Source: a phage
Sequence record: PZ386957.1
DNA: 64,000 bases
Direction: 5' to 3' (one strand)
Made by a program: the position numbers and the translations under genes. The notes under the pieces are model-generated. The model was not told where the DNA came from, searched no databases, and worked only from the letters and a program-made list of their open reading frames with translations. Shown one piece after another: positions 5,941-60,231 of the stretch (within the stretch, counting starts at the first letter, position 1; every line of letters starts with the position of its first letter).

Positions 5941-7380
5941 TTAAATGTCAAACAGGTCCGTAAGCGATGCCACTTTTTCATATTGCAGCTTTGCAGCCGT
6001 GGTAATGTTCTCCAGTGGTTTGACGAAAGTCTTATTGAACAACAAAGACCAGTCCAACCACTTTAACACCTCTGATTCAATTTCTGGAGGAATACGAGTA
6101 CCAGACAACCAACCAAAACAGATTTCTCCAAACGGATTTCGATCTTTGAGCGGTACGATCATAACTTTCTCGCCCTCACGAATCGGATCTAGTCCAAATT
6201 TTCGAGCATTACGATTATAACACAATACGCTCTTAACCGCATACGGACAGCCCTTAATCGGATACCCGTTTGAATCGCTGTATTTCTGTAGGTTGTTTGC
6301 AGATGATACCGCAGCAACCTCAAGATAGTCAAGTTTTCTAAATTCTTGCTCAAAAATACCGTAGTATTCCTGCAATGACTCTTCACCTTCCTGCAACATA
6401 CGACGAATACATTCTTTCAGTGATTTCTGACATGCTTTAGGTGTAGAACTACGTTGCGTTTCTAAGCCCATGATTTTTAGCTTAGGTTCAGCAAAGCGAG
6501 TTCCTTCCATATCCCAAACATTAAGAGCATAACGCTTTTTACCAGTCCAGAATCCACCGATACCCGCAGATTTCAACGGAGGACCAGCAATTGCCTCACG
6601 GTCCATAAACATCAAGTGCTCATAGTTGTTCATGTACTCGCATAACTCGCGATATCCCTTGTCGATAATAGGTTCCATTCGATGTTTACCGAAATTATCA
6701 AGGAAGTCAACAAGTTTTTCGGTATCGTCGAAACGGTCTTCCCCACCAACCTTATCAACAACATTGTTAACCAGCACATAAACGGAGTCAGTATCACAAT
6801 AACGAACATATGCAAAATCGGTTGTTCCGCAAAGTTCGTTTAAGTATTCGTTAATCTTACGCTCAATCCACTGAATTGCAAGCTGACCGAACAAAGTGAT
6901 CGCACTAGCATTACGCAGATCATACAAACGAAATTTCGGATTTCCTACATATTTTCAATGAGTCGCGCAACCAACTCACCCGCCGTTAGGCTGCTGCATA
7001 TCGCTATGCAGATAAGACTATATCACCTATCAACCGAAGTCAATAGCCCACCATTTCGAGCGCCATTAGCTTGCACCCTACACCGTTACACTCATCACGG
7101 TTAGTCGTTAGGCATTTACAGCATTATAGCTGATTTAGCACGGGATTGTCAACCAGTCCGTATACGTTGATATTCCCCGTTTAGATGGGTTTAAGGTGCG
7201 CTAGGATGTTTACGCACCATAAAGGCTGTTAATCAATACCTTTCGTGAAAGTTGGTTTGTGTTACATAGAATAGACTCGTCTTGACATATCGCTAGATGC
7301 CGTTCTAATTCCTCGATTGGTAACGAATCAAGATAGGCCAATTCTTCATCGGTGAAGTCTTTACGATGATCTATATTCAT
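5941..7380 (-). CDS. 43: DNA polymerase C-terminal subunit gp43B, intron-containing: exon 1 = 7212..7380, group I intron = 6948..7211, exon 2 = 5941..6947
   Basis: ATG at 7380 (AAGGAG RBS) overlaps the HEG stop as ATGA; exon 1 encodes MNIDHRKDFTDEEL...NTNQLSRKVLINSLYGA (motif B KxxxNSxYG); joining U7212 to U6947 reads ...LYGALGNPKFRLYDLRN, colinear with T4 ...LYGALGNIHFRYYDLRN; exon 2 carries motif C YCDTDSVYV; spliced product 391 aa. Confidence 0.82.
6948..7211 (-). ncRNA. group I self-splicing intron, ORF-less, within gene 43B
   Basis: 5' exon end GGUGCGU pairs with intron GCGCACC (P1, U-G wobble at splice site); adjacent intron CCUA pairs with 3' exon UAGG (P10); intron ends in G; internal P/Q/R/S-like elements (CGGGGAAUAUCAACG, AAUCCCGUGC, AACGACUAA, GAUAUAGUCU); two in-frame stops inside. 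Confidence 0.75.
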
Positions 7381-8198
7381 GATATATCTTTCTCCTTAAG
7401 CCGACAATTGTTAAAATGCCAGCGTTTTAAAGACTGTGCAACTCCAGATTTACCGCAATGTGGACATACAGCAATAATTTTCTTGCTTTCTTCCCAGCGT
7501 TTCTTTGCGGCTTCTTTCATCTTTTCTTTAGAGTCGTCAGACATTTTCTTACCTTTCATGCCCTTAACGCAATCTGGATTTTCTGCTATTCTAGCAAGCA
7601 TTCTTTGTCTTTGCAACTCTTTTTTCTCGTCGCTCCACCCTGCGGATATTTTATCACGTTCTTCCTGTGATAGCGTCTTACCAACTTGTTTGTGTGGATT
7701 TTTAGAATAATATTCTTTTAATCCTTTAGCGATCTTTGCCTTTGTATCATCAGAGTGAGATTTGTCAATATCTTTGTTGCTATTATACTTCTCGATGTTT
7801 CTTTTTGAAACGGCATCATAAAATTCTTTGTTTGACTTTCTCGTCTTTTTGATACCGTTAGAAACTTTGACAGCAATTACCGGATTTTTCATCGGGTTAT
7901 TGTCGCCGGAAGTGTCGATGTGATAGAAGCCACCGACACCGCCTAACGTGATGTTATATGTATCAGACCGCTTTAGAAAGTCTTCGTTTACGATCTCGGC
8001 CTCTTTGTCATAAGCGTCTTTCTCGTTATCATATTCAAACAGAATATCTTTATGGAAGTTTTCGACCCCATACTTCGCGATAGCTCGTTTGATATGAATA
8101 CCGCTACCCATATATGAATCATCTGGGTCGTCGGTCTTGTGTACACCAACATAGATCATATTGTTTATCTTATTTGTGATCCGATACACATAATACAT
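7377..8198 (-). CDS. freestanding GIY-YIG homing endonuclease (Seg-like) inserted between 43A and 43B
   Basis: 273 aa; N-terminal GIY-YIG module YVYRITNKINNMIYVGVH, repeated NUMOD3-like S..E.R.KIS segments, C-terminal CPHCGKSG zinc finger; start overlaps 43A stop (TAATG), stop overlaps 43B start (ATGA). Confidence 0.85.
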   Translation of the reverse strand: MYYVYRITNKINNMIYVGVHKTDDPDDSYMGSGIHIKRAIAKYGVENFHKDILFEYDNEKDAYDKEAEIVNEDFLKRSDTYNITLGGVGGFYHIDTSGDNNPMKNPVIAVKVSNGIKKTRKSNKEFYDAVSKRNIEKYNSNKDIDKSHSDDTKAKIAKGLKEYYSKNPHKQVGKTLSQEERDKISAGWSDEKKELQRQRMLARIAENPDCVKGMKGKKMSDDSKEKMKEAAKKRWEESKKIIAVCPHCGKSGVAQSLKRWHFNNCRLKEKDIS

Positions 8199-9685
8199 TA
8201 TTCACCTCGTCGTTTCTTTAACATCTCCTTAATCTTTTCAGCATTACGGTCACACGCCAACATCATGTTTTTGTACTGTTTACGCTGGTCGAACACCTTT
8301 TTGATTTCAATCGGTACTACACCCTGAATATCTTTTCGATACATCCAACCGTTAGGAGAACATGAGTATTCATCGCTAGGCCGTTCCGCTGTTTTATTAA
8401 TATAGTCGATCATTGGCGCGGTGTCAAATGATCCAGCTATAGTTTCCGGCGAAATGTTAACCTGTCGGATGATAGACGGATACAGACTTGTTAAGTCAAA
8501 GCTCATCATCCAACGGTAAGCATTAGGTACTGGTTCTTTTACAAAAGCACCTGGATACGTCTGCTTAGGCTGTATCTTATTTTCCGGTACTACTTTACCC
8601 TCAGCTTTCAGAGATCCGAAGATAATAGCATCCCATACCTTCATCGGGTTATACACATGGTTAAATTTAATCTTTGCATAGTAGCATAGACTATACACAA
8701 GATCGATAAATCCGCGCTTTTTATCAATCGCCAATACACGATCAACGTCGCCGATGTTATAATCGATGTAAAGTTGATGGTTGTCATCACGCAATTTCTT
8801 TAACGGACCATCATAATCAACCTTACCGATTCCTGTCTCATATTCAGCAACATAATCTAATGCATATGTTGGTTGAGTCGTAAAGCTGAATTTCTTGTAC
8901 AGGTCAATGTAATCAAGGCTTTCGATCCCCATGATCGTAAATGCTTCACGCTCGTTGCCAAAATCATCCTGTGAGATTCGGGATTTAATCTTACCGCACG
9001 GGCTTAATCGGTTTGCCGTTCGACTTCCAAACTTATTACTGATACGCTTAATGATATACGGGATATCGAATGTTTCTGTGTTCCAGCCAGTGAAACCAAC
9101 TGGTCGATTTTCCTCAAAGAATCGGATGTATTCTAACAGCAATTCATCTTCCGTATCGTAGACGTTATAAACAACACGCTCTACTATATCAGGTCGAAGA
9201 ATAGACTTTCTTGCTTCCCATATTTCACCGTTTTTGCCTTTCAAATCAAAGACAAAGAAACGATCATGTACGGAATCATAATGCGTAATTGCATCAATAG
9301 GATATTTTGCTTCTTCTGGCTTCGGGAATTCCGGCGCAGTAACCTCAATATCAACCCATGCTACACGGATTTTATTTCGGTCATATCGAATCTCACCCTT
9401 GTATGTGTCGGATAGATAGGAGATGATAAAATCATCCATTCCTAACGCCTCTTGCCCCATCTCTCCCATCTTTTTACGCCATTTGTTGGCCTCGTTCATA
9501 GATGGGAATTTTTTAGCAATGCAAGGCTTGCCATAGATATCTTTATAATTAGTAACCATACCAGGCGCGGCATGATGAAATAAAGTTGGCGTATACTCAA
9601 CGTAACGCTCTTGTTCTTGTCCGGTATCATCAATATAACGCTCGTAGATCTTATCACCTACTCTCTCACATGACAGAAAATACAT
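8198..9685 (-). CDS. 43: DNA polymerase N-terminal subunit gp43A (N-terminal and 3'-5' exonuclease domains, motif A)
   Basis: Start refined to ATG 9685 (MYFLSCERVGDKIYERYIDD vs T4 MKEFYISIETVGNNIVERYIDE); contains FDIPY, YNI.DV, DLTSLYPSIIRQVNISPET; ends with TAA where T4 gp43 continues. Confidence 0.9.
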   Translation of the reverse strand: MYFLSCERVGDKIYERYIDDTGQEQERYVEYTPTLFHHAAPGMVTNYKDIYGKPCIAKKFPSMNEANKWRKKMGEMGQEALGMDDFIISYLSDTYKGEIRYDRNKIRVAWVDIEVTAPEFPKPEEAKYPIDAITHYDSVHDRFFVFDLKGKNGEIWEARKSILRPDIVERVVYNVYDTEDELLLEYIRFFEENRPVGFTGWNTETFDIPYIIKRISNKFGSRTANRLSPCGKIKSRISQDDFGNEREAFTIMGIESLDYIDLYKKFSFTTQPTYALDYVAEYETGIGKVDYDGPLKKLRDDNHQLYIDYNIGDVDRVLAIDKKRGFIDLVYSLCYYAKIKFNHVYNPMKVWDAIIFGSLKAEGKVVPENKIQPKQTYPGAFVKEPVPNAYRWMMSFDLTSLYPSIIRQVNISPETIAGSFDTAPMIDYINKTAERPSDEYSCSPNGWMYRKDIQGVVPIEIKKVFDQRKQYKNMMLACDRNAEKIKEMLKKRRGE

Positions 9686-9717
9686 AATATAAACTCCTTC
9701 ACTTACGAAAGACACTC

Positions 9718-13487: not shown

Positions 13488-15156
13488 TCATTTCAGTGAA
13501 TCGCCCACGTTTAACCATCTTGAGATGACGGCTAAAATCATCAGGGTTATGGTCACGATGGCTGATAATATACACGTTATCATCTAACTTGTCAATGATG
13601 GAATCAAGTGCTTTTACGCCTTGAACGTCCGTAGCCCCATCATAAATTTCGTCGAGTACCAACAAAGAAATATTAGTACCAGATACTTTACCAGCAACAT
13701 CACGCCACGTAAAGAGCATCGCAAGATCAATACGTGCTTTTTCGCCTTGACTGAATGATGTATACGAAAACGATTCACGCCCCCGTGATTTAATTGTTTC
13801 GTTAAACTCTTCATCTAACGTAAAGATATAATCCGCTTCCATGATATCAAGATAATACGCAATCCGATCATTGAAATATGGAATATATTTCTTGACGATA
13901 GACGCCTTAACACCGGAATCCTTCAACATTTCTGTCACAAATCCACGATGATATTTTTCAAGAACTAGCTTTGATTTTTCATTAGTGATCTCTACCAGTT
14001 CGTGTTCCAGTTTAGCAAGTTCTTCGGAATTGTCAACCCTTTCTTTTTGCAATTCCTGCATTGCTTTCTGAATCTGTTTAGCACGACCTACAGATGCCGT
14101 TAAATTCGCTCTCTGCGACTCTATAGCGCGTTTAATTTCCAAGACCTTAGTTTGTGCTGTCTGGAAAGAATTGGCTTTCTCTGCGTATTCTACGCGTTTC
14201 TCGTCAATCAGAGACAGTTTATGTTCCGCTTGTGCTTTTTGTTCGCGTACAGCTTGATCATTACCTTGAATGATCGGTTGTGTGCACGTAGGACAGACCC
14301 CGCCTTTCTCATGCATATGAATAACACGGTCAAAGTTCTGGATCTGCGCACCAATCTGTGCGATAGCCGTATTAATTTTAGCCAATGCCGCGCTAGGATC
14401 TTCCGGCATAACAACAGCCAATAGCTCATCGGTCAAGCGAGTTTCTTCGGCTTTAAATGCTTTAGCCGATTCTACCTCTTTATCATACATATTCTGTAAA
14501 CGCTGGAGATTCTCGGCACTCGCCTTGCCAGCGTCTTCTATGTACTTTTTATGAGTGTTGATTTGTTGCTGAACGTGATTAGCTTTCATTTCCTGCATTT
14601 GGATATTCTGGGTTATCTCGCGCACATACGCTTTATTCAGTTTATCCATTTCGCCTAGCGTAGCAATATCAAGCAAATCCTCGACCAGTTTACGGCGACC
14701 CGCTGCCGGAAGACTCATAAACGGAACATAACCAGCAGTGCCTAAAACAACGATCTGTTTAAAGCTGGCTAGGTTCATGCCTATGATACCTTCAAAATAT
14801 TCCTGAAAGTCTTTGGTGCTTGCGCTCTCGTCGATCTTTTGACCGTCGCGATGCACTTCGAATACTTCCGGTTTTTGACCACGTTTGATGTAAAACTCTT
14901 TCCCGTCCAGTTCAAACCAGACTTCGACTAACAGTTTCTTTTTGTTGACGCTGTTAATCAATTGGCCTTTCTTGATACTACGAAACGGTTTACCGAACAA
15001 CACAAAGCAAAGCGCCTCGATCATTGTTGATTTACCAGCACCGTTAACACCAGTGATTAGTGTCTTTTTGAATCCGTCTAGCTGAATCTCAACAGGTTCA
15101 GCACCCACGCTCATTATATTTTGATAGCGCAAGGTTTTAAAATTTAACTTTGCCAT
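13474..15156 (-). CDS. 46: recombination nuclease subunit gp46 (SbcC/Rad50-like ATPase)
   Basis: 560 aa from ATG 15156 (GGAG RBS); Walker A GVNGAGKST, long coiled-coil, CPTC zinc hook, C-terminal signature and Walker B LLVLDEI. Confidence 0.88.
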   Translation of the reverse strand: MAKLNFKTLRYQNIMSVGAEPVEIQLDGFKKTLITGVNGAGKSTMIEALCFVLFGKPFRSIKKGQLINSVNKKKLLVEVWFELDGKEFYIKRGQKPEVFEVHRDGQKIDESASTKDFQEYFEGIIGMNLASFKQIVVLGTAGYVPFMSLPAAGRRKLVEDLLDIATLGEMDKLNKAYVREITQNIQMQEMKANHVQQQINTHKKYIEDAGKASAENLQRLQNMYDKEVESAKAFKAEETRLTDELLAVVMPEDPSAALAKINTAIAQIGAQIQNFDRVIHMHEKGGVCPTCTQPIIQGNDQAVREQKAQAEHKLSLIDEKRVEYAEKANSFQTAQTKVLEIKRAIESQRANLTASVGRAKQIQKAMQELQKERVDNSEELAKLEHELVEITNEKSKLVLEKYHRGFVTEMLKDSGVKASIVKKYIPYFNDRIAYYLDIMEADYIFTLDEEFNETIKSRGRESFSYTSFSQGEKARIDLAMLFTWRDVAGKVSGTNISLLVLDEIYDGATDVQGVKALDSIIDKLDDNVYIISHRDHNPDDFSRHLKMVKRGRFTEMNVNI

Positions 15157-15400
15157 TAATCCACTCCGCAATCACACATTCCATAATATTAAATGCTAAC
15201 ACATCTTCATCAATGTTGTAAACACTTGCCGCCTTCACTTTAACTAATGTGTCTCTGCGATCTGGCAGCATGATCACATAATCCAGTGTCGCAGGGTCAT
15301 ATGTCATAAAGGGATCAATGTAAATCCCTTTATTCAATGCCAGATATTCGCGAAGACCTTCTATAACCCTGTGTCTAAGGTAGGTCATCGATAGAATCAT
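15137..15400 (-). CDS. hypothetical small protein
   Basis: 87 aa ORF between 47 and 46. Confidence 0.45.
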   Translation of the reverse strand: MILSMTYLRHRVIEGLREYLALNKGIYIDPFMTYDPATLDYVIMLPDRRDTLVKVKAASVYNIDEDVLAFNIMECVIAEWINGKVKF

Positions 15401-15957
15401 TTTAGTTTATGTTCCTCTAAAAATTCTTCAATTTCACCTTGCAGGTCTTCCGCTTGCTGTTCCAGAATATCGCGAAACTCACCTACACTCAAGCGGTAAT
15501 CACATTTCACCAGTCGATGCGGGAGAATATACCCTTTATACATCGTCTCTGACGCTTCCAGGAATACCCCGCTATGCATAACAGAGATCCACCCTGTTAA
15601 CGTCAAAGGTGTATTCGGAAAATAATATTTGCTGGATTGTTTCCACTGGACGAAAGCACCATATACAATCGGATTATATTCACCGACAACACTCTTAATA
15701 ATGGATTCTACCCTGTCTTTTACAAAGTCGCCAATGTCCATAGTCACCATCAACTCTTGTGGGTGAATCACTTTAAGGTAACGACGATAATCATCATCAT
15801 AGTACAGCTTAACCACTGGTCCACCCCACATAGACGAAATATTCGCTTTCAGATATCCATAAATCGGATTCTTATCATAGGATTGTTTTAGCGTGTAGTT
15901 ATGCAACAGCGTAATAAAATGTTGCATCACCTCAACCGCGCCCGTAATCGTATTCAT
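15397..15957 (-). CDS. hypothetical protein
   Basis: ORF track 15397..15981; start refined to ATG 15957 with GGGGGA RBS. Confidence 0.5.
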   Translation of the reverse strand: MNTITGAVEVMQHFITLLHNYTLKQSYDKNPIYGYLKANISSMWGGPVVKLYYDDDYRRYLKVIHPQELMVTMDIGDFVKDRVESIIKSVVGEYNPIVYGAFVQWKQSSKYYFPNTPLTLTGWISVMHSGVFLEASETMYKGYILPHRLVKCDYRLSVGEFRDILEQQAEDLQGEIEEFLEEHKLK

Positions 15958-16276
15958 AATATGTCCCCCTTTCAATTTCATATTGTTTCAGGTCTTCTAA
16001 AAGCTCATCCATTGCTTGTTTCAGCACATGACGCAGAGTAAAGTAATAGCTTTCATCAAATTCTATTTCCGCGCGAGGGATAGAGCGAATCTTACACTTA
16101 ACGGTAGTATCAGTGAGTCGCTTTTCGACCATCATCCGAACTTCTTCATGCTCTTTGGAATACCATACATCAACGGAGATCCCCTTACGTCGAGCAAACA
16201 TAGGCAAAGCTGCATTAAATTCTACTACTTTTTGTGCAAGTGTTTTCATTTTACATACTCCACGATTCACGGGCAA
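15932..16276 (-). CDS. hypothetical protein
   Basis: 114 aa ORF, same orientation. Confidence 0.45.
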   Translation of the reverse strand: MPVNRGVCKMKTLAQKVVEFNAALPMFARRKGISVDVWYSKEHEEVRMMVEKRLTDTTVKCKIRSIPRAEIEFDESYYFTLRHVLKQAMDELLEDLKQYEIERGTYYEYDYGRG

Positions 16277-16514
16277 TCACATTCTGGGTAATATCAGCAA
16301 TCTTACGGGATACGATGTTTGTTAGCCCCTCTTTGGTGATATTTTCACGATCAAATGGGATTTCGTCATGAGTCCATAACCCAGAGTTAGACCGAAATGA
16401 TAGCATATACTGACCATCTCGTACAACCTCAAATACATGGATCTTAGTGAACTTCGCTAAACCTTCGTTGATTTTGTTCAGTGCATCAGTAATCATAATA
16501 TAACCTCCAATCAA
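16251..16514 (-). CDS. hypothetical small protein
   Basis: 87 aa ORF directly downstream of gene 47. Confidence 0.45.
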   Translation of the reverse strand: MIGGYIMITDALNKINEGLAKFTKIHVFEVVRDGQYMLSFRSNSGLWTHDEIPFDRENITKEGLTNIVSRKIADITQNVIARESWSM

Positions 16515-16552
16515 TTTTTAGAGAGTATAACGGGGATTTCTCCCCGCGTCAA

Positions 16553-17578
16553 CTAATTTTTTGCGCTATTTACTTCGGCTAAAAGTTCATCAGAAATACG
16601 CTTGACCGCCGCAAGTTCTTCCGGTTCTAGGTTTTGTTCTTCCAGATATTCATAGACCATCTGAATAGTGCTTTTAACCTCAATAACACCAGTTTCCTGT
16701 GATGCGCTACTCTCCAGCTTATGGACCACTTTTAGCTTGTGTACAACGGCCTCTAACGCGCTTTCTAACTTAGTTAACCCATTATCAGCGACCGTTGCGA
16801 TAAGACGCACACTAAGCCCCTTATAGCGTTCTACATCGATTTTATCATCTGACGGGTAAGTGATACGCACATGATAAGTTTTGTCGTTCTGGATAAACTC
16901 TTTTTTGTGTGTATCGGTATCAAATACCCAAAAACCACGCGGATCATTTTCGTCACCAGCCGTTAGTGTGTATGGTGTACCGATATACGTTACGTTACCG
17001 CCATCACTGATAGTATGAAAGTGACCAGAAAACACTTCACGGTATTTCTTGAGGAAGTCCGCGCTATAACCTTCGGATTTTAACCCTTTATAGAAATAGT
17101 AACCGGACAATTCCCAATGACCTACACAATATTCGCTAAATGAATTTTGAATAAACTCTAAAACCTCGGATTTATTGTCATCACAAAACCACGGGAACAG
17201 GTCGAATGATACCCCGTCAAAGCTAACGGTTTCCGGCTTATCAATGACCTTAATGCAATCATACTGGCTTAACACTTCACGCGGTGCGTTAGGCTGGATC
17301 TTGTTTCGTTTAAACATATCATGATTGCCTACCGTGATATAACAGGTGATTCCTGCCTCTTCCAGTAATGGGATGACCTTAGTACGGTTAAATTTCATGG
17401 TTTCATGAGTTATCGCCTTGCGGCAATCAAACCAATCCCCTGTCTGAATCCATGTCTTAATATCATGTTCTTTTGAGTATTCAACCGCTTTCTTGATGGT
17501 ATCAAGAATATAATCATGTACCCACGGATCATCGCCACCGATACCAGTATGCAGATCACCCAAAAGCAAAATTTTCAT
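16553..17578 (-). CDS. 47: recombination nuclease subunit gp47 (Mre11/SbcD-like phosphoesterase)
   Basis: 341 aa; calcineurin-like motifs LLLGDLH, GDWFD, GNHD, GHFH. Confidence 0.9.
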   Translation of the reverse strand: MKILLLGDLHTGIGGDDPWVHDYILDTIKKAVEYSKEHDIKTWIQTGDWFDCRKAITHETMKFNRTKVIPLLEEAGITCYITVGNHDMFKRNKIQPNAPREVLSQYDCIKVIDKPETVSFDGVSFDLFPWFCDDNKSEVLEFIQNSFSEYCVGHWELSGYYFYKGLKSEGYSADFLKKYREVFSGHFHTISDGGNVTYIGTPYTLTAGDENDPRGFWVFDTDTHKKEFIQNDKTYHVRITYPSDDKIDVERYKGLSVRLIATVADNGLTKLESALEAVVHKLKVVHKLESSASQETGVIEVKSTIQMVYEYLEEQNLEPEELAAVKRISDELLAEVNSAKN

Positions 17579-17668
17579 AGTCTCTTCCTCTCTTCGTTTT
17601 CGATGCTCTCACTATATCATAGAAAAATAAAAAGGGAAACCCCTTTCAGAGTCTCCCTTATAAAGCCA

Positions 17669-17956
17669 TTACAGCATACTTAATACCGTTTGACGTGTAC
17701 TAACCCACATAGCGGAAAGCAGTTCTGGAGTGTGTGGCTGTTTGTAGATATCACGTAATTTTCCGATAGCGTAGATATACGCATCACGGTTATCATCGAT
17801 GATAGCTTGTTCAGCCCACCGCTTAAGGCGTGCAATCTCTCGCGAGTTCTTACGCAAGATCTTTTCCGCTTTCTTAGCGGCTTTCGCCTCTAGTTCTGCT
17901 TGTACTTTGTCTACTTCATTCACTACAATCTGGTCATGTTGTTCATCGTAAGTCAT
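17669..17956 (-). CDS. hypothetical small protein
   Basis: 95 aa ORF in the T4 alpha-gt interval; much too small to be a glucosyltransferase. Confidence 0.45.
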   Translation of the reverse strand: MTYDEQHDQIVVNEVDKVQAELEAKAAKKAEKILRKNSREIARLKRWAEQAIIDDNRDAYIYAIGKLRDIYKQPHTPELLSAMWVSTRQTVLSML

Positions 17957-17957
17957 A

Positions 17958-18191
17958 TTATTTTCCTTCTGGGATATAGTCGATGATTAAAGAAAATTCA
18001 TCTTCTGATACATTATAGCTATGTGAGATTGTACCCGTCAAGACCTCAAGATCCGGTGACTTGATATTACACGGATCGATAATCACCGGAACGCCGCAAT
18101 CTCTCAAAAATAATTTGGCGAAATACGGCACAAGGTCAGTTTCAAACTCTGCTTCTTCCAGCAAACGGGAAATATTAATTTTCAATCTCAT
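17958..18191 (-). CDS. hypothetical small protein
   Basis: 77 aa ORF. Confidence 0.4.
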
Positions 18192-18708
18192 AGAATTGGT
18201 CCAGGCTAGGCAATTCCTCGGTCAATACATCTTCAACCTTCGGCGCTTTCGGCTTATTGACCGATTCCTCGTAATTGTTGATCTTATCGTAAATGTCCTG
18301 AATGAATGCCTCATCAGCAATCTGGCACATATCAGCGTCGCGTTCGTCATATACATGATGCACAAAATACTTATATTTTGCGGCTGTCGCTGTTCTTTCT
18401 TTTTTAATGCGCTGTACAAAGGCATTAAAGCACGCTTGCGTAATGTAAGCATGAGGATTTTTATACTTTGTCTCGTCAAAATTAATCAAACCTTTGACCG
18501 CCGCTTCGATTCCATCGTCGATCATTTCTTCGCGCCATGTTTGACTATAACCAGAAAAGTTAAAACGCCGTGATAGATTTTTAGAGATTTGCATAATTGC
18601 TAGACCGATTTGATCGCTCATTGGAACTTGTCGACCTTCGGCTGCAATTCGCTGTTTCCAACGACAAATTTCTTCGTAAAGTTCTTTATTGTTTACATAA
18701 TCAGACAC
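18175..18708 (-). CDS. 55: late-transcription sigma factor gp55
   Basis: 177 aa; [57 protein letters not shown] matches recalled T4 gp55. Confidence 0.92.
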
Positions 18709-18748
18709 TTCGCACCCTCGCTATTATTTAGGAAATAACCCTTTCGGG

Positions 18749-20221
18749 CTATCTCCATTCTCGTTTATATTTGCGGTCTTTATCAATCCACTGTTGCACC
18801 ATCTCTATTGATTCAGGATCATTTTCATCAAGGGTAAACCCTTTCTTCTTCATGCGGTATTTGAAACCATCAAATCTTTTAGCCTCATCACTGGTCATAT
18901 TATGTTTCTTTTTAAATGATTGCTTACTCTTACGTTGACCACAATCAAGCTGAATCATTTTATCAGTGATAATTTTTGCATTAGGGAAAAATTCTTTGAT
19001 GTATTCAGCCAAAGGCCAATCAGGAACATAGAGATTTACTTCCTGTGTTGATTCGTTATCACGCAAATTGCTACGGAGACACAACTGAAAAGCCGAATCA
19101 AGATAATCGGTTAAATGACGCGCATCAACAAAATCATTGACAGGAAGATCACAACTACGTGCTAATCCGCGAAGAATATCAATTTCCCACGGACGAGCGT
19201 TATAGCTATACAATACCGCAACATTAGTATGATGTATATAATAGTTAAGACCATGTGGACCATATGATAAGCGAACACCTTTACCGCGTGTTGCGTATTC
19301 ACGGTCTTTGTTTACTGTATAGATGAAATTATCACCACATTCATTTATAACCAGGTCAATCATCTTTTCAAATGTACCATTAACCTTAGATTGATTTCGT
19401 GACCATCTCTCGGAATCGGTCATCAAAATGATGTTAACCCGGTGAGTATTCTTATACTCAGTAAAATACAATCTAGATCTTAACTCACTTTCGACAAATT
19501 CGCAACCAACATAATGTTTAAGATACTTCCCGCTATATGTTCGTTCCAGTTCAGCACTTGCTATAGTGACTTTCTTGAAATTTTCCCATACATGATGCTT
19601 TGTGTCGTTCAGGAAAATAACCCGTGATCCATTTTCTCGATGGCCATCATTATGCTTCACCATAACGCGAATCTTACTATTCAATAACGCTCCATAAAGC
19701 GATGTAAGCGCACTATCGATATAATCTAACCCTTTCTTACCCTCATCTAGTTTTTGCTTGATATAGGGCGTTTCAGAAGGTTTTAGAATTAATTCCTGCA
19801 TATCTTCCGATTTATCGGCTATTGGTTCGCAATATTTCAGAATCATACCCAAATTAGATTTAAGTGCGCATTCTTCAAACTCAACCAATTTAGGAACTTC
19901 GTCAATATAAAGGCTATAATCATTGAATAGCTTAGAAGGTTCCAGCGAGGCAAGCGCGTTATGTGTAATAAACAACACATCAATATCATCTCTAAGAGAT
20001 TGAATAATAGACGCTTGCACTGTCATGTAACTTTTTAGTTTGCTGTCACTATCAATCAAGACAGCACGACCGCCTAACTTCATAAACTTATTGTAAGATT
20101 GTTCACTTAAAACACGCGTTGGTGAAGCAATAACCGCTTTTTCTTTTGTCTCTAGGACGTGGGAAAGAATTGCGTCAGTCTTCCCCGCTGCTGGTAATGC
20201 GATTAATGTTTCAATTTTCAT
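18749..20221 (-). CDS. P-loop NTPase of unknown function (possible helicase/ATPase)
   Basis: 490 aa; N-terminal Walker A ALPAAGKT and Walker B-like LYIDEVP; not assignable to a known T4 gene from memory. Confidence 0.65.
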   Translation of the reverse strand: MKIETLIALPAAGKTDAILSHVLETKEKAVIASPTRVLSEQSYNKFMKLGGRAVLIDSDSKLKSYMTVQASIIQSLRDDIDVLFITHNALASLEPSKLFNDYSLYIDEVPKLVEFEECALKSNLGMILKYCEPIADKSEDMQELILKPSETPYIKQKLDEGKKGLDYIDSALTSLYGALLNSKIRVMVKHNDGHRENGSRVIFLNDTKHHVWENFKKVTIASAELERTYSGKYLKHYVGCEFVESELRSRLYFTEYKNTHRVNIILMTDSERWSRNQSKVNGTFEKMIDLVINECGDNFIYTVNKDREYATRGKGVRLSYGPHGLNYYIHHTNVAVLYSYNARPWEIDILRGLARSCDLPVNDFVDARHLTDYLDSAFQLCLRSNLRDNESTQEVNLYVPDWPLAEYIKEFFPNAKIITDKMIQLDCGQRKSKQSFKKKHNMTSDEAKRFDGFKYRMKKKGFTLDENDPESIEMVQQWIDKDRKYKREWR

Positions 20222-20526
20222 TAGAAACCCTTACGTCGTGCTTTCTGGCATTTCTTGATCGCCTTATCCGAAATTTCACGTTTCGGGGCGATCTCTTTAA
20301 CGCCAAATGCTTTCACTCCAAATTCAGAAAGAATATATTCTACCATCAATTCACGCACACGCGCTTTACCGATATTCACACCATTATTTTTCAGATATTG
20401 CTGGCCTTCTACTTGCATAAGGTCCAGATCTGCATCAGTGATATTAATCTCTTCCATGCGTCCAAATCGAGAGTAAACCATGTGTGCGATTGCATTGTGT
20501 ACTAACATAATATATTCCTCACTCAA
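20221..20526 (-). CDS. hypothetical protein
   Basis: 101 aa ORF. Confidence 0.45.
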   Translation of the reverse strand: MSEEYIMLVHNAIAHMVYSRFGRMEEINITDADLDLMQVEGQQYLKNNGVNIGKARVRELMVEYILSEFGVKAFGVKEIAPKREISDKAIKKCQKARRKGF

Positions 20527-20529
20527 GAA

Positions 20530-20637
20530 TTACTTAATGATACTTACTTTACCAGATCCGTGACAATGAGCGCAACACCCATCACCACGCAATCCTGTTC
20601 CGTTACAGTGTTTACACTTCTTCAAAGGTAAAGCCAT
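20530..20637 (-). CDS. 35-aa zinc-ribbon mini-protein (two DnaJ-type CxxCxGxG motifs)
   Basis: Unlisted short ORF MALPLKKCKHCNGTGLRGDGCCAHCHGSGKVSIIK; two perfect CxxCxGxG motifs; no obvious Shine-Dalgarno. Confidence 0.35.
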   Translation of the reverse strand: MALPLKKCKHCNGTGLRGDGCCAHCHGSGKVSIIK

Positions 20638-20677
20638 TATGGCAAATAAAGCAATAATGAACACCGAAACTAAATTC

Positions 20678-20947
20678 TCAATAATCATAAATCGCCCTCA
20701 GTTCTTTATAGCCTCCAATGTGCTCGTTGTCAATGAATATCTGGGGGTATACAAATCGGAGGCTGTCTTTACCCAACCTCCCCGCCAGTTCTTCAATCAT
20801 ATCACGGTCGGGAATAATGTCAACCCCGACCTGCTTGAATACTGGTTTAAGTGTATACGGAATACCCAGATCATCCAGTAGCTTCATTGCACTAATACAA
20901 CCATAACAATGATAAGCCTCTTTCGGTATACCGTATATCTCGATCAT
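20678..20947 (-). CDS. glutaredoxin/NrdH-like small redoxin
   Basis: 89 aa; CxxC (CYGC) near N-terminus and C-terminal IGGY..L motif; in the T4 nrdH position. Confidence 0.65.
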   Translation of the reverse strand: MIEIYGIPKEAYHCYGCISAMKLLDDLGIPYTLKPVFKQVGVDIIPDRDMIEELAGRLGKDSLRFVYPQIFIDNEHIGGYKELRAIYDY

Positions 20948-21444
20948 TTCTCAGCCTTTAATCTTTCCAGTTCTTCTTCCAGTTCCTTGATGCGTTGTTC
21001 TCGTTCAAAATCACGCTGTAACTTAGTGGCGAATACTCGTTTAAACTGATTGTAATCATCGATTTTAAACACTTCTTCTTCGCCATAGCGACGTACAGAA
21101 ACTTCGTAGTTATTGAAGAATTGTTGCATCATTGCTTCGGATGATAGTTCTGCTGATACTACTTTAAAATATTGATCTTCTGTAGGCGAAAACCAATTGC
21201 AAGCATAAAGATAAACCTTTTCATTGTCTGGACACTGGTAAGCCTTACCATCGATTTCAATCACAGAAACATATTCAGGTATAGTAGATGAATCAATAGC
21301 TAAGACTTTAAACTGACGGTCCCCGATAAACTCGGAGATCGCACGATTCGCATCACTGATCGCAAATGCTTTACGCGCTTGTTCGTTTTTCCACTGATAG
21401 GTCATGCCAACAACAAACATATTACCAACCTCGCTCTTTACCAA
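20944..21444 (-). CDS. tandem-paralog family protein (one repeat domain plus coiled-coil tail)
   Basis: 166 aa; repeat-domain signature (G.TYQWK...F.V..ID....YVSVIEIDGKAY) shared with neighbouring genes; C-terminal charged helix. Confidence 0.6.
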   Translation of the reverse strand: MVKSEVGNMFVVGMTYQWKNEQARKAFAISDANRAISEFIGDRQFKVLAIDSSTIPEYVSVIEIDGKAYQCPDNEKVYLYACNWFSPTEDQYFKVVSAELSSEAMMQQFFNNYEVSVRRYGEEEVFKIDDYNQFKRVFATKLQRDFEREQRIKELEEELERLKAEK

Positions 21445-22255
21445 TCAAAAATTCAACTTCACGACGTTTAATGTCTTCTTGAAGGTCTTTAATCTTCTGG
21501 CGATCTTGCATGATTTCGTCCATTTTGTCAAGTGCTGCGATGAAATCATCGAAACGTTCAAAGGTTTTACCTTCATTTGCTTCGCCAAATTTAACCATTG
21601 TCAGGCCGTAACGACTACTAAACAGACGTTTCAACTGTCCAACGACCTTAGAATCATCGTTCACCTTTTCTTCTGGTTCTTTCACTGTTTCAACTTCACG
21701 AAAATATTTTCGTTCAAGCCCAACAAACCACACAGCATCAACATCATCATCAACACCCGCCGAATGAGGATTAAATGTTCCACAAGCATTATCATTATTG
21801 ACGTCGATCATAGTAACGAAACCAACAGAATCAACGGAAGATACCGTAAAAGTCTCATCTCCTATCCAATCAGCAATTTTACGGTTGATATTAGAACAGT
21901 GAGAAAACGTCACTTTTGCGTTTACATCTTTCCAAGTATAAGTTTTACCAACTTCCCATTTAGGAGGAACTTCTTCAACTTCACGAAAGAATTTTCTATC
22001 GAATGGACTAAAGAAATATGTTGATGTCCAAATGTCTTTTCCTGTAGCAGTTTTCGCCGTATGATAAACACCGTCTAGCTCTATTGCATCAATCCAACCG
22101 TTACCCTCGATCTCGATGATGGTAAATGGCTTGTCACCAATAGCTACACTAATATCGCTGTTAAGTGGAGAAAGACAACCGTCTACGTTAGTAATAAACT
22201 CAGTTTTAGCGTTTTCGTCTTTCCAAGTGTAAGTTTTACCAATTTCCCATTTCAT
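21422..22255 (-). CDS. tandem-paralog family protein (two repeat domains)
   Basis: 277 aa; internal duplication KWEIGKTYTWKDENAK... and KWEVGKTYTWKDVNAK..., each ending [DE]RK[FY]FREVE. Confidence 0.65.
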   Translation of the reverse strand: MKWEIGKTYTWKDENAKTEFITNVDGCLSPLNSDISVAIGDKPFTIIEIEGNGWIDAIELDGVYHTAKTATGKDIWTSTYFFSPFDRKFFREVEEVPPKWEVGKTYTWKDVNAKVTFSHCSNINRKIADWIGDETFTVSSVDSVGFVTMIDVNNDNACGTFNPHSAGVDDDVDAVWFVGLERKYFREVETVKEPEEKVNDDSKVVGQLKRLFSSRYGLTMVKFGEANEGKTFERFDDFIAALDKMDEIMQDRQKIKDLQEDIKRREVEFLIGKERGW

Positions 22256-22267
22256 AATATAATCCTC

Positions 22268-22747
22268 TTAACCGATTTTATCAAGTTCGTTTAATGCTTT
22301 CTCTGCTTCCTGTATAGCTTGCACCCTTTCCGGCATTTTGTCAAGAAAATCTTTCAACTCTTCAAAACTGGAGATATGACGCAAGGCGTTAGCACCGATA
22401 GCCGCATGTGATTTGCATTCAAAGCGAATTTTATAATTATCCATCGCCAACTTGAGAAGATCAATTAGTTTAGATTCTTCTGGAATAATAATTTCTTCAA
22501 ATCTGCTACGGTCATGATCCAGAAACCAACAAGATAGACCTACATCGGTTGAACTCATATAAGTTCCATCATGAAGATATACAGACCGCACGTATCCTTT
22601 TTTCGCATCAACCGACGCAACTTTAAACGGTAATCTCAGATATTTCAAATAATCAACATCATACCATTTAAAAAATTGGTTTGCATCTTTTACATCTTTC
22701 CACGCATAGGTCTTACCAGCTTCCCATTTCATAATATCATCTCTCAT
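22268..22747 (-). CDS. tandem-paralog family protein
   Basis: 159 aa; KWEAGKTYAWKDVKDANQF start of repeat domain; helical tail. Confidence 0.6.
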   Translation of the reverse strand: MRDDIMKWEAGKTYAWKDVKDANQFFKWYDVDYLKYLRLPFKVASVDAKKGYVRSVYLHDGTYMSSTDVGLSCWFLDHDRSRFEEIIIPEESKLIDLLKLAMDNYKIRFECKSHAAIGANALRHISSFEELKDFLDKMPERVQAIQEAEKALNELDKIG

Positions 22748-23276
22748 TTTTGATACGTGATTCTAATTGGATCATACGGTCGCGCGTTTGCTTGTATTCA
22801 CGGATAGCACCGATCCGGCTAGGCATACCATCTAGGACGCTCTTAATCCCTTCTAGGGTAGTGATTTTAGCAATGCTATTATGTAACCCCATCTTATCGA
22901 TCAACTGAATGTCGTAGGCTTCCATAAGCAGTCCCAGACGTTCTAAGGTTAAATCTTGTTCTTTATCTTCTTCCGATTCTGGAATCTTAGGTTCAATAGT
23001 AACTTCGGTAAAGAAACGACGCTCACCACCCCAAAACCACACACCGGAACAGTCAATAGGGGATTCTTTTAAAGTCATGGAGTCGAAATCACTACCAATA
23101 ATAGTAATTTCTCTAACATCACCATCGTCGTCAATGTCTTCTACCTTAAACGGGCGACCAGCCAACAGGTCCATAATACATCTGTTAATACCAGACGAAA
23201 ATTTAGTCAGTTCGGCTTTCGACGCTTCGCATTCAATCTTGTAAGTTTTACCAACTTCCCATTCCATAATAATCAC
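22737..23276 (-). CDS. tandem-paralog family protein
   Basis: 179 aa; EWEVGKTYKIECEASKAEL and ERRFFTEV repeat-domain signature. Confidence 0.6.
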   Translation of the reverse strand: MIIMEWEVGKTYKIECEASKAELTKFSSGINRCIMDLLAGRPFKVEDIDDDGDVREITIIGSDFDSMTLKESPIDCSGVWFWGGERRFFTEVTIEPKIPESEEDKEQDLTLERLGLLMEAYDIQLIDKMGLHNSIAKITTLEGIKSVLDGMPSRIGAIREYKQTRDRMIQLESRIKNER

Positions 23277-23277
23277 C

Positions 23278-23787
23278 TCAAATAATTTTCACTGGAATAC
23301 TATTAACAATCTTGTATTGTACTTGATTGTCAGACCCCCGCCACGGCTTCTTCGTTGGCATATCTTTAATATAACGCCCATCGATGAACATGTCAACTGA
23401 TTCTACAATTTTTCTTTGCTCATCATTCAATTGGTCAAGGGTATAACCGGACCATAGCCAAATATCTTTATTTGGCATCCATGATTTTACTTCATCGATG
23501 ATCCGCTGTACACCCTTTAAATTGCGTTTATACAGTGGATCACCACCTAAGAATGTTAGCCCCTGAATAAAATCAGGTCTAAGCAGATCCAGAATCAATC
23601 CCATTGTATCATCGGTGAATGGTTCCCCGTTCTTAGGATTGAGTAGGCTAGCATTAAAGCAACCATCACATGCGTGTGAACATCCGGTAACGTAAAGGGA
23701 GACTCTCACTCCCTCACCGTTAACCATATCACAATCTTTAATATCGGCATAGCGTAGTTTGCCGTATGTATCAGAACTCATATTCAA
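23278..23787 (-). CDS. nrdG: anaerobic ribonucleotide reductase activating protein NrdG (radical SAM)
   Basis: 169 aa; radical SAM cluster motif CSHACDGC; size and position match T4 NrdG. Confidence 0.88.
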   Translation of the reverse strand: MNMSSDTYGKLRYADIKDCDMVNGEGVRVSLYVTGCSHACDGCFNASLLNPKNGEPFTDDTMGLILDLLRPDFIQGLTFLGGDPLYKRNLKGVQRIIDEVKSWMPNKDIWLWSGYTLDQLNDEQRKIVESVDMFIDGRYIKDMPTKKPWRGSDNQVQYKIVNSIPVKII

Positions 23788-23923
23788 TTACCCCGAACTC
23801 GTTTACAATCTGCGCTTTATAGTAACCACCGCGAGATGCTAATAGATAAGCTGGGCTTAGGTATTCGTATTCACGGATTTCTACTTGTGCGTTTTCAGTT
23901 TCCCAAATCAGTAAAGTCCACAT
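23771..23923 (-). CDS. hypothetical small protein
   Basis: ORF track 23771..23998 trimmed to ATG 23923 (AGGAGA RBS) because the longer start would lie upstream of its own promoter. Confidence 0.4.
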   Translation of the reverse strand: MWTLLIWETENAQVEIREYEYLSPAYLLASRGGYYKAQIVNEFGVIEYEF

Positions 23924-23965
23924 ATTTGATTCTCCTGTAAAGTTGTATCTCGTCTTGATGAATAT

Positions 23966-23994
23966 AGTATAGGGGATCTCGCGATCCCCGTCAA
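23966..23994 (-). promoter_or_regulatory. sigma70-type early promoter
   Basis: Minus strand TTGACG-17-TATACT; spacer contains palindrome GGGGATCGCGAGATCCCC. Confidence 0.55.
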
Positions 23995-23998
23995 GCAT

Positions 23999-25083: not shown

Positions 25084-25111
25084 ATTGTCCTCTCTTTGTT
25101 TCGATGTGAGC

Positions 25112-25139
25112 ATTATACATGAGCTAATCATGTTGTCAA
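25112..25139 (-). promoter_or_regulatory. sigma70-type early promoter
   Basis: Minus strand TTGACA-16-TATAAT directly after the nrdD terminator. Confidence 0.55.
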
Positions 25140-25155
25140 CACCCCAAAACGAAAA

Positions 25156-25177
25156 AGCCGACCCTTTCGGATCGGCT
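25156..25177 (-). terminator. rho-independent terminator after nrdD
   Basis: AGCCGATCCGAAAGGGTCGGCT hairpin followed by a U-tract on the minus strand. Confidence 0.6.
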
Positions 25178-25182
25178 AAAAA

Positions 25183-35309: not shown

Positions 35310-35338
35310 CTTTGATTCTCCTTAGTTGGTATGTGCGC

Positions 35339-37863: not shown

Positions 37864-40011
37864 TTATTCTCGTCCATTTGTATAGTAGTGTTTGAATCGC
37901 CCATAGCCAGTTTCAATAGACATATCTTTCTGTCGGACAATCGCCCAATAGCCATTGCATGAATCTTGCAAATACAGATCCTTACCTTTTAGGAACTCGT
38001 TAAAGATCGTAATCTGCCAATCATAATAGACGGCATCAGCGAGACTATCCATCCAACCATGTGGATCATCCATCAGTTCGACAAGCTCATCGATAACCCA
38101 ATATGGACACGGGCTAAATTTACCTTTACTAAAATCATTGAACAAGGTAACAAGTTTAACTTCCGGTCGCGGTTCATCCGGCTGCACAGGTCGTTTATTA
38201 ACCACAACCTGTACATATTTCGTATACCCGATGATTTCGCCGGAGTCAAGAGTATCGTTATTGTTCTTATCTGCATAAGCCACAAAACGATAAACACCGG
38301 AATCATTTATTGTTGCATTAGCTTTACGGTAAATCGGCACGCGAGAATCAGCAATAGGTAATTTAACACCAGCTTTGCTAAACTCATAGGTAGGTACATA
38401 ATCAGCCGGAGGCTTCAACATGGTAGCCTCAAGAACAAGCGGTTCACCTTCCGTAATCTGTACCGGATGCGGACCATCAAATTCCATATTAGGCACTACC
38501 TCAACATGGTAGGTAGCGCGTGCTGCAATATCGTAATCGGTATGCGCACTATATGGATCTTTACTCGGACTATCGCGGTATTCATGCGACCAGATACCGT
38601 TATGGTCTCGGTCTGCGGAATCAGTGATCTTATACTCTTTCGCTTCAATAGGCAAATCTGCGACTTTAACATCATTTTTCAGAATTACTAATGAACGCGT
38701 TTGAGTCGGATCACCGCTTGCTGGCGGTTCTGGATCGACGATCTTAATTACAATCGGTTCACCAATCTCAATATTACGATAATCATATTCTTTATCGTAA
38801 ATGTCAAGCATACGGCGGTCATAGAACAAAGGACGTCCGGTCGGTGTTCTCTGCGGATCATCATCACGCGCGGGAGCCACCAACAGTTGAAGTGCTACGC
38901 TATCGTCATATTGCAATTCATTAAGCGTAATGCGGTCATATCCCGGATCACCGTATTTCTTGCTTTGGAGTTGCTTACCGCCTAGCATCCACGTAAAGTA
39001 AACATTATTTGCAAGCATACCATAATGGCGGTTCCATGAGTTATCCGCTGGTAATACTGGCATATCAAAGTTTACTTCCGATCCAGAAGGATAACGAAAT
39101 TCGATTGCTGCAAAGTCATTACGGAAAAATTCGTTTTCCTTAACTTTGACAGTAAATCGGTGTCGCTGCCCTTCAATGAATGATTCACCAGCACCAGGTC
39201 CATTAACCACTTTATAGGAGCGAACGCAAGCTACATATTCACCTGCATCATTTTCGGTAGCATGTTTGGTTGCATAGAGTGTTTTGTTGGTAGACTCATA
39301 AACAAGAGTACCGTCGCCACGCTCTAAGCGATACCTTACAATGGTATGCTCTGCGTCATTAGGCGCATCATCTTCTACCGTGAAATAAGCTGGTGCATAT
39401 TTCTGGACATTGAATACTGCGGGATTTTCCTTAATATCGGCAACAAACGGATAAACAAATTTAACGTCGCCGTGTTCGTCGCTCAATTCCATTCGGTAAT
39501 TACCGGAAAATTCAGGCCATGCAAATTTTGCAATTTTAAATTCACGATGGTCTAATCCCAGATCACCATCAATGGAATCAACGAGGCCATTATTATAATA
39601 CAGGTCAACCGAAATATTAGCCGGAATATTACTACGGAAAACAATTTTTGCTTTAATTTCATCACCAATATCAAAAGACGTTGGAGGATGAACATATTCG
39701 ACAAAGACATTATCGAATAAACTAAAGGTAAAGTTTTCCGTGCCGATATCTACGGATTCGCCAGAAAAATTTTCATCATCTTGCGCATAACCACGAAGGT
39801 TAACAGACCATCCGGTTTTATCCTCTTCTTTCACTGAATCCAATACATAGGAAGGAGTTGCAGTAGTCGCAATGACCTTATTGTCTTTCTTCCACGTAAA
39901 ACCCTTTTTAGGTTTAGTTGGTTCAGGGGATTCCCCAGCAAGGGAACAAGCGAAAGTATGAGGAAGCCAAATGGTAGTATTAACGCTAGTATCTTTATTT
40001 TCTACTGGCAT
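37864..40011 (-). CDS. large protein of unknown function with Ig-like-looking repeats
   Basis: 715 aa; repeated D.G.Y.C/F-type motifs (ENDAGEYVACVRS, INDSGVYRFVAYA) suggestive of Ig-like beta-sandwich domains; no signal peptide or catalytic motif recognised. Confidence 0.65.
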   Translation of the reverse strand: MPVENKDTSVNTTIWLPHTFACSLAGESPEPTKPKKGFTWKKDNKVIATTATPSYVLDSVKEEDKTGWSVNLRGYAQDDENFSGESVDIGTENFTFSLFDNVFVEYVHPPTSFDIGDEIKAKIVFRSNIPANISVDLYYNNGLVDSIDGDLGLDHREFKIAKFAWPEFSGNYRMELSDEHGDVKFVYPFVADIKENPAVFNVQKYAPAYFTVEDDAPNDAEHTIVRYRLERGDGTLVYESTNKTLYATKHATENDAGEYVACVRSYKVVNGPGAGESFIEGQRHRFTVKVKENEFFRNDFAAIEFRYPSGSEVNFDMPVLPADNSWNRHYGMLANNVYFTWMLGGKQLQSKKYGDPGYDRITLNELQYDDSVALQLLVAPARDDDPQRTPTGRPLFYDRRMLDIYDKEYDYRNIEIGEPIVIKIVDPEPPASGDPTQTRSLVILKNDVKVADLPIEAKEYKITDSADRDHNGIWSHEYRDSPSKDPYSAHTDYDIAARATYHVEVVPNMEFDGPHPVQITEGEPLVLEATMLKPPADYVPTYEFSKAGVKLPIADSRVPIYRKANATINDSGVYRFVAYADKNNNDTLDSGEIIGYTKYVQVVVNKRPVQPDEPRPEVKLVTLFNDFSKGKFSPCPYWVIDELVELMDDPHGWMDSLADAVYYDWQITIFNEFLKGKDLYLQDSCNGYWAIVRQKDMSIETGYGRFKHYYTNGRE

Positions 40012-59676: not shown

Positions 59677-60231
59677 ATGAAAGAAAACGTCATTCATTAC
59701 ACAGAAGAAGACCGTAATTTTTATAACGAACTTCATAATGCTTTCGTCTATGATGATGGTATTCTTTATTGGAAACATACAAGATCGAATCGTATAAAAC
59801 CCGGCGACATTGCAGGTGTGTTATGGACAAACAATAAAACCGGATATTCTAGTTGGAAGATCGGATTTAATGGCAAGAAATATCATCGGTCATTACTGGT
59901 TTATGTTATGCACTATGGACATATACCAACGGCTTCTCAAGTTATCGACCATATAAACAACACATCAACGAATGACAGAATAGAAAATTTGCGGGTCACA
60001 ACCCAGCATCAAAATACTCAGAATAAGTCGAAGGCGAGAAATAAAACCAATGGAAAATACAAGGGTGTGTTTTTAACCAAAAACGGAAGATGGAAAACCC
60101 AGATTGTCGTGAATGGTCGATGTGTTTACTTAGGAACATTTGACTGTGAAGAAACCGCCGCAAAAGAATACAACAAAGCTGCAACTCATTATTTTGGTGA
60201 GTATGCGAAATTGAACGAATTAAGGGTATAA
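59677..60231 (+). CDS. freestanding HNH homing endonuclease with AP2 DNA-binding domain
   Basis: 184 aa; HNH core IDHINNTSTNDRIENLRVTTQHQN; AP2-like YKGVFLTKNGRWKTQIVVNGRCVYLGTFDCEETAAKEYNKAA; inserted between 5.4 and 6. Confidence 0.85.
   Translation: MKENVIHYTEEDRNFYNELHNAFVYDDGILYWKHTRSNRIKPGDIAGVLWTNNKTGYSSWKIGFNGKKYHRSLLVYVMHYGHIPTASQVIDHINNTSTNDRIENLRVTTQHQNTQNKSKARNKTNGKYKGVFLTKNGRWKTQIVVNGRCVYLGTFDCEETAAKEYNKAATHYFGEYAKLNELRV

Follow-up and report, generated by a model that had tools for sequence, protein, structure and literature searches.

What is the protein encoded just ahead of the late sigma factor gene in a relative of phage RB49, and what would it do during infection? The window considered here, meaning the whole stretch of DNA that was analysed, comprises 64,000 nucleotides of phage sequence record PZ386957.1. 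It comes from a Krischvirus (RB49-like, T4-type), and its positions 14000-26000 are ~93% identical in nucleotide sequence to 59 records. A first-pass annotation had placed at 18749-20221 an unassigned P-loop NTPase of 490 amino acids, immediately upstream of gene 55. The coordinates are right, and the strand on which the frame is open is the minus strand; the plus-strand frame of 18749..20221 is full of stops. The placement is right as well, with 40 nt between the stop codon of the gene and the GTG start of gene 55. The genes concerned are the following:

18749..20221, minus strand: coding sequence of an SF2 helicase-type ATPase (490 aa, ATG start, TAG stop), orthologue of RB49p044 / phrog_2467
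18175..18708, minus strand: gene 55 (late sigma factor), with a GTG start and 99% amino acid identity to RB49 gp55
20221..20508, minus strand: gene 55.2 homologue (DUF7570), 95 aa, Pfam PF24454 with E 5e-29

The 490-aa ORF is a genuine conserved gene and not a chance ORF. The protein is matched by phrog_2467, a PHROGs family of unassigned function, with E 1e-148, and its orthologue in RB49 is RB49p044 (NP_891615.1), labelled "hypothetical protein". The ORF had not gone wholly unnoticed. RB49ORF044c appears in Nolan et al. (2006) with a weak DEAD/DEAH match, and one phage record (W115) labels the orthologue "putative helicase". The general kind, an SF2 helicase, is already known, and the gene was weakly flagged earlier; what is newly added is the Fe-S-less XPD/DinG-like architecture, how widespread the fusions to a primase-like domain are and their setting in mobile elements, the coupling to 55.2 and the history of allele swapping. 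The exact allele of the window was absent from the records in an exact-protein look-up, an NCBIfam search with the 490-aa protein gave no match, and PDB sequence searches, with the single protein or with a family profile, returned nothing even at E<=10. Among the papers in the library searched, none describes an experiment on the gene. A homology search, named at first pass as the check that could overturn its reading, identified no known T4 replication or packaging gene; in RB49, dda and gene 41 are present as genes separate from the helicase orthologue.

Which kind of NTPase is it? Residues were called invariant from an alignment of 27 homologues with 34-79% identity, and by this alignment the protein carries what reads as a full SF2-type motif set. 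The main landmarks, all on the minus strand, are:

20177..20200, minus strand: motif I / Walker A, residues 8-15 (ALPAAGKT), with P10, G13, K14 and T15 invariant in the 27 homologues
19892..19912, minus strand: motif II / Walker B, residues 104-110 (LYIDEVP; DExx), with L104, D107, E108 and V109 invariant
19574..19891, minus strand: 106-aa insertion (residues 111-216) separating motif II from motif III, where XPD/DinG proteins have their Arch domain
19061..19090, minus strand: motif VI-like segment, residues 378-387 (FQLCLRSNLR), putative arginine fingers, with F378, Q379, L380, C381, R383 and R387 invariant
18752..18961, minus strand: basic helical C-terminal tail, residues 421-490, with 20 K+R in 70 residues and low conservation

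The Walker A motif had been recognized correctly and numbered one residue too far along, as 9-16; the Walker B-like LYIDEVP, said to lie near residue 107, is where it was expected, with D107 and E108 at its centre. Both motifs that mark an SF2 protein are present and invariant (AAGKT at residues 11-15 and DEVP at 107-110), and the protein has two tandem RecA-like domains. Between and beyond them, the same homologues share S33, L38 and S42 in motif Ia, F84, T86 and H87 in motif Ib, a motif III-like TIAxAN at residues 219-224, and Y301, N304, R307, Y320, G324 and N326 in motifs IV and V, followed by a further conserved block (S339, N341, W345). In motif VI the invariant Q379, R383 and R387 stand at the expected place, with the spacing Q-x3-R-x3-R and no glycine, in contrast to QxxGRxxR. 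The last 70 residues are the least conserved part of the protein; a predicted model places helices there at 444-459 and 469-489, and the tail may serve in binding nucleic acid or a partner.

Profile libraries see little of this. The single Pfam match is to the DEAD/DEAH box helicase family over residues 11-111, with 28.7 bits against a gathering threshold of 26, and the same DEAD family matches 15 of the 27 members. For the second domain, Pfam Helicase_C matched neither the query nor any of the 27 members, and DEAD_2 and Helicase_C_2 gave nothing at E<=1 with the query or at E<=0.1 with the 27 members. In a fold search, as recommended in the first-pass annotation, XPD/DinG DNA helicases are closest to the predicted model. 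The NTPase call holds, narrowed to an SF2 helicase-type ATPase with a predicted XPD/DinG-like fold.

Another question concerns the company that the gene keeps. The window's 55.2 homologue has 43.8% identity to RB14 gp55.2, and its stop codon overlaps the helicase ATG as TAATG. T4 makes its gp55.2 early; the protein is an inhibitor of E. coli topoisomerase I and confers a fitness advantage (PMC4396842). The helicase gene lies between a small upstream ORF and gene 55 in RB49, Aeh1, Pm5461, Cronobacter phage S13 and two metagenomic contigs; RB16 retains the upstream ORF, but has gene 34 downstream of the helicase. In all seven (RB49, Aeh1, Pm5461, S13, RB16 and both metagenomic contigs) the upstream ORF and the helicase ORF overlap or abut. 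Homology of this ORF to 55.2 was checked, and found, in RB49, Aeh1, Pm5461, RB16 and one of the contigs (L010); on the other contig (L009) the ORF has a Pfam DUF7570 match, which makes it a candidate 55.2 homologue. A strictly obligatory adjacency to 55.2 is refuted by Aeromonas phage 50AhydR13PP, with its two intervening genes, and by the counts, 55.2 occurring in 1093 records and the helicase in 244.

Several smaller observations belong to the same neighbourhood. In 50AhydR13PP (L016), a gene for a "DprA-like DNA recombination-mediator protein" (1929-2504) shares 4 nt with the beginning of the helicase homologue and takes the place of 55.2 as the immediate upstream partner; Pfam gave no support for the DprA assignment. 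In the window, just upstream of 55.2, a 52-aa ORF (20530..20688, minus strand) combines a hydrophobic helix at the N-terminus with two motifs of the DnaJ zinc-finger type (CxxCxGxG); phage W115 has it as "putative membrane protein". Inside nrdH, at 20823->20796 on the minus strand, there is a near-consensus sigma-70 promoter (TTGACA, a 16-nt spacer, TATGAT and an upstream TG), a candidate placed where it could give an early transcript of the 52-aa ORF, 55.2 and the helicase; a simple promoter and terminator scan around the helicase gene did not rise above shuffled expectation. At 18737-18750, also on the minus strand, a small hairpin with a GNRA tetraloop (AGCCC-GAAA-GGGTT) and with ATTTCC after it overlaps the stop codon of the helicase gene; it may affect RNA stability or act as a weak terminator before gene 55. 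Rfam found no RNA family in 17500-21500.

How widespread is the gene? Full-length homologues are present in 244 phage records, which include Krischvirus, Aeromonas T4-likes, RB16/RB43-like phages and phages of Cronobacter, Proteus, Serratia, Morganella and Providencia; the non-T-even Straboviridae genera that have the gene include Krischvirus, Pseudotevenvirus, Bragavirus, Cinqassovirus, Tulanevirus and others. T4 lacks it, as had been supposed: from 55.2 to 55 the T4-type phage RB14 has just 55.1 and one further small ORF, and T4-type phages of this kind are absent from the 244 records. The label "lineage-specific" was thus apt as far as absence from T-even phages goes, and misleading if it meant confinement to one phage, since the gene is common to many non-T-even Straboviridae and to some jumbo phages. 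Predicted-structure matches add uncharacterised proteins from Fusobacterium, Achromobacter and Pseudoalteromonas phages and from two jumbo phages, Atu_ph07 and phiRSL1, and in an exhaustive profile search 1384 cluster representatives match at E<=1e-3.

The allele found in the window is itself unusual, and it coincides with one further feature:

18775..20075, no strand: sharply bounded divergence island (nucleotide identity, dS) relative to all sequenced Krischviruses, an allele swap

Inside the island, nucleotide identity to RB49 falls to 60-73%, compared with 93-100% in the flanks; its breakpoints lie near codon 50 and near the stop codon. The best protein identity among the 59 Krischvirus records is 67.6%, and the nearest proteins, at 79% identity, are metagenomic. 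On the contig of one metagenomic relative, most flanking stretches are 90-98% identical to the window and the gene only 71-87%. The dS of the helicase gene, 1.57 against RB49 and 0.95 against the metagenomic allele, is near saturation, versus 0.03 for nrdG and 0.24 for gene 55, and its dN/dS is 0.12-0.16. The gene is under purifying selection, and no arms-race signature was found. Because dS itself is ~1.6 and dN/dS 0.12-0.16, positive or diversifying selection is ruled out as the cause of the island, which, on these sequence comparisons, is an old allele acquired through recombination.

Elsewhere in the 64-kb window, a single alignable island reaches a similar depth, the gp38 adhesin region (35300-36200, 63-76% identity to RB49). 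About 1.7 kb from it, a 715-aa ORF (37864..40011, minus strand) with a weak Ig-like match has no counterpart in the aligned RB49 stretch, and by its proximity this region may be a second variable region related to host range. Other differences from RB49 were seen in passing. The DNA polymerase gene 43 is interrupted by an insert of ~1.3 kb (6945-8237, minus strand), which holds a group I intron match (Rfam RF00028, core 6994-7245, E 7e-12, 52 bits against a gathering threshold of 50) together with an ORF (7377..8198) for a GIY-YIG/NUMOD3 homing endonuclease of 273 aa, with gp43 coding ORFs on either side at 8198..9715 and 5941..6927. An HNH + AP2 homing endonuclease ORF (59677..60231, plus strand; Pfam HNH_3 E 2e-10, AP2 E 8e-7) sits between a PAAR-like ORF and gene 6, where RB49 has nothing, and the HNH-AP2 gene that RB49 has between 47 and a-gt.4 is absent from the window (junction near 17575); this looks like a mobile endonuclease at differing sites in close relatives. 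Finally, between nrdH and nrdG (20944..23276, minus strand) there is a tandem array of four paralogous ORFs of 166, 277, 159 and 179 aa, each starting with a W(E/K)xGKTYxWKD-type motif that occurs twice in the 277-aa ORF. The 277- and 159-aa ORFs were scanned against Pfam and gave no match, and the segment 21656-21925 does not align to RB49.

Relatives outside phages bring another partner into view. Among the 144 new profile matches listed, 59 are 700-900 aa long, and the fused relatives carry ~300 extra residues that share the patterns hhhDhD(G/D)G, (N/S/T)(S/T)xS/H, RYRhhhP and G(h)DxxK...YhPC and end in a C-terminal G-x-G-N...L...G-L segment. With motif definitions taken from PMC5862659, these patterns appear to correspond to AEP primase motifs I-III followed by a PriCT-like end. 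Pfam and PDB profile searches with the extension gave nothing significant; among 14 fused members, the "DNA primase" family phrog_9765 matches 11 (best E 1.9e-12), phrog_2135 matches 10, phrog_17236 four and the "Replicative helicase-primase" family phrog_3228 three. The putative primase domain is thus assigned from motifs and PHROG matches together.

The fusions come from Alphaproteobacteria (Mesorhizobium, Bosea, Azospirillum, Agrobacterium, Methylobacterium) and are located within integrated elements at three loci: directly downstream of a tyrosine integrase; in an island shared with resolvase, GmrSD, HNH and integrase genes; and between housekeeping genes, together with methyltransferases, UmuDC and a Gabija-like pair. 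They stand where the replication module of such elements is expected, and this ties the helicase core to DNA priming and replication. A search of viral contigs with a fused relative found no related locus, and tblastn against plasmids returned only two weak Sinorhizobium matches. In Mesorhizobium sp. Root552 (L013, 7998-11985), the helicase (462 aa) and the primase-like part (289 aa) are separate ORFs. Next to them comes a 490-aa protein that has a type I restriction R-subunit domain 3, and housekeeping genes (mfd, a solute-binding protein and a porin) flank the unit.

Kazlauskas et al. (2018) predicted a novel helicase family of viruses and plasmids, including "some T4-like phages" (PMC5862659). 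Their pVOG1685/9714-like helicases are fused to All3500-family AEP primases, and helicases fused to primase-like domains are found here too. Their examples are Prim+zf-CHC2+helicase proteins of Firmicutes with the primase N-terminal, whereas most fusions here are alphaproteobacterial with the helicase N-terminal; one (P0121) has its primase-like part N-terminal to the helicase. The combination that characterizes pVOG1685/9714, a remote SF2-like helicase in T4-like phages and primase fusions elsewhere, recurs here in 244 phage records and in primase-like relatives of ~800 aa, and the phrog_2467 family is probably the same as theirs or a sister to it.

What, then, does the protein do? The reading that we prefer, at a probability of roughly 60%, is that of an active ATP-dependent SF2 DNA helicase or translocase, made early and serving as a non-essential accessory on replication or recombination intermediates. 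Behind it stand the reality of the gene, the conservation of its motifs, its predicted fold affinity, the synteny, the primase-fused relatives and the purifying selection, all obtained directly. The two RecA-like domains, with all SF2-type motifs, would drive ATP-dependent work on DNA, in a protein with a putative accessory domain between motifs II and III, a basic helical tail and no iron-sulfur domain. Synthesis would most likely fall early in infection, because the gene appears translationally coupled to the 55.2 homologue and 55.2 of T4 belongs to an early transcript. Forks, D-loops or R-loops would be the substrates, with the standard T4-type helicases gp41 and Dda, and presumably UvsW, acting alongside; by analogy with XPD/DinG, the polarity may be 5'-to-3'. 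Against this reading stand the DEVP of motif II, the unusual spacing of the motif VI arginines, the missing Pfam matches to Helicase_C, DEAD_2 and Helicase_C_2 and the empty sequence searches of PDB. Many XPD/DinG enzymes, moreover, use their Fe-S domain in the unwinding wedge, and the phage protein has no such domain. SF2 proteins with all motifs can also be non-unwinding translocases or remodelers, such as IEE (PMC9943667).

Could the motor be aimed at the host or its defences, stripping or remodelling proteins or nucleic acids of either (CRISPR or restriction complexes, for instance, or the R-loops that follow Topo I inhibition) and not at replication proper? The gene is accessory and missing from T-even phages, it is swapped between lineages like a cassette, as in the gp38 adhesin region, and it is coupled to 55.2, an inhibitor of host Topo I (PMC4396842). 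The neighbours of its predicted structure include the defence helicases CasDinG, Hna and DdmD, and the islands of the fused relatives hold Gabija-like, GmrSD and methyltransferase genes. However, allele swaps are common across T4-like genomes, defence cargo beside the replicase of an element is uninformative about the replicase itself, dN/dS is low with no diversifying selection seen, and PADLOC models gave no match at E<=1 for the window protein and only short N-terminal matches, none of them full-length, for its relatives; a role of this kind is unlikely. An origin-recognising initiator helicase, in the manner of UL9 or of a mobile-element replicase, is quite unlikely. Its tail would bind a phage site while the motor opens the DNA, so as to start origin-dependent replication in the non-T-even T4-like phages. 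The partnership of the helicase core with a primase-like domain, in proteins of integrated elements that look like replicases, fits this idea, as do a tail that is basic and variable between lineages and the link that Kazlauskas et al. (2018) drew between the related pVOG9714 and UL9 (PMC5862659); yet none of the 27 members matches Herpes_ori_bp (PF02399), and the phages retain the full T4 replication set, with which T4 manages in the absence of this gene.

A bolder version would make the conserved 55.2-helicase pair a two-part module for DNA topology and R-loops, or the helicase a captured core of a mobile-element replicase acting as a second, origin-specific initiator; taken together, these proposals are improbable. 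In the R-loop module, gp55.2 would block host topoisomerase I, negative supercoiling and R-loops would be favoured, and the DinG-like helicase would exploit or resolve the R-loops on phage DNA, for instance in priming or clearing origin-type replication; the helicase half would then have disappeared from T-even phages, where UvsW or Dda would fill its role. Lower still on the scale stands a DEAD-box-type RNA helicase with RNA of the phage or the host as its substrate and a part in mRNA turnover, translation or RNA folding. The DEAD/DEAH box family is the sole Pfam match, and motif Ia (SPTRVLSEQ) resembles the PTRELA motif of DEAD-box proteins. On the other side, only 7 residues precede Walker A, too few for a Q motif; motif II reads DEVP in place of DEAD, and motif III (I/V)TIAxAN in place of SAT; Helicase_C does not match, and the relatives are fused to DNA primase-like domains. 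In the predicted-fold ranking, moreover, DEAD-box structures come below XPD/DinG and align over one domain only. With Q motif, D-E-A-D and S-A-T all missing, this candidate was rejected.

Why should this matter? T4 is the reference for phage DNA replication, and a large part of the wider family carries a helicase-type motor in addition to the T4-type set: RB49, RB16/RB43 and Aeromonas, Proteus, Serratia and Cronobacter phages. To know its function would supply a missing piece of the toolkit with which phages now in therapy replicate and recombine their DNA, and would describe an XPD/DinG-like enzyme in a minimal form that lacks Fe-S. It would also account for one half, the helicase, of the uncharacterised fusions to a primase that bacteria carry in integrated mobile elements. 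In practical terms the impact is moderate, since this is an accessory gene of an unsurprising biochemical class.

How does the protein compare with helicases already described? In XPD and DinG the Arch domain sits between motifs II and III. The phage protein has its insertion 111-216 at this place, by position a candidate Arch-type accessory domain, much smaller at ~106 aa. XPD carries its Fe-S domain between motifs Ia and II, with four cysteines for the 4Fe-4S cluster; only ~60 residues separate these motifs in the phage protein, with no Cys at residues 43-103, and the alignment of the 27 homologues has no conserved Cys cluster; membership of the Fe-S XPD group is ruled out by the lack of cysteines in this segment. 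In this respect it resembles the Fe-S-less members, CasDinG of type IV CRISPR and Gram-positive DinG. It further differs from XPD/Rad3/DinG in motif II, which is DEVP versus DEAH, in its added basic tail, and in that no full-length sequence homology to them is detectable.

Other likenesses come from phages and mobile DNA. T4 UvsW (SF2), Dda (SF1B) and gp41 (DnaB-like) are phage helicases of one replication and recombination system, and UvsW, an SF2 protein like the one described here, processes R-loops and branched DNA. IEE, the IS-excision enhancer of E. coli O157, joins an AEP PrimPol to an SF2 helicase-like domain on mobile DNA, and this domain carries all motifs and nevertheless exemplifies a non-unwinding SF2 protein (PMC9943667). 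Set beside these systems, and given its motif set, the insertion between motifs II and III and the missing Fe-S domain, the phage protein is best described, from its motifs and predicted model, as a minimal Fe-S-less helicase of XPD/DinG-like architecture, akin to that family in design and not a member of it at the sequence level.
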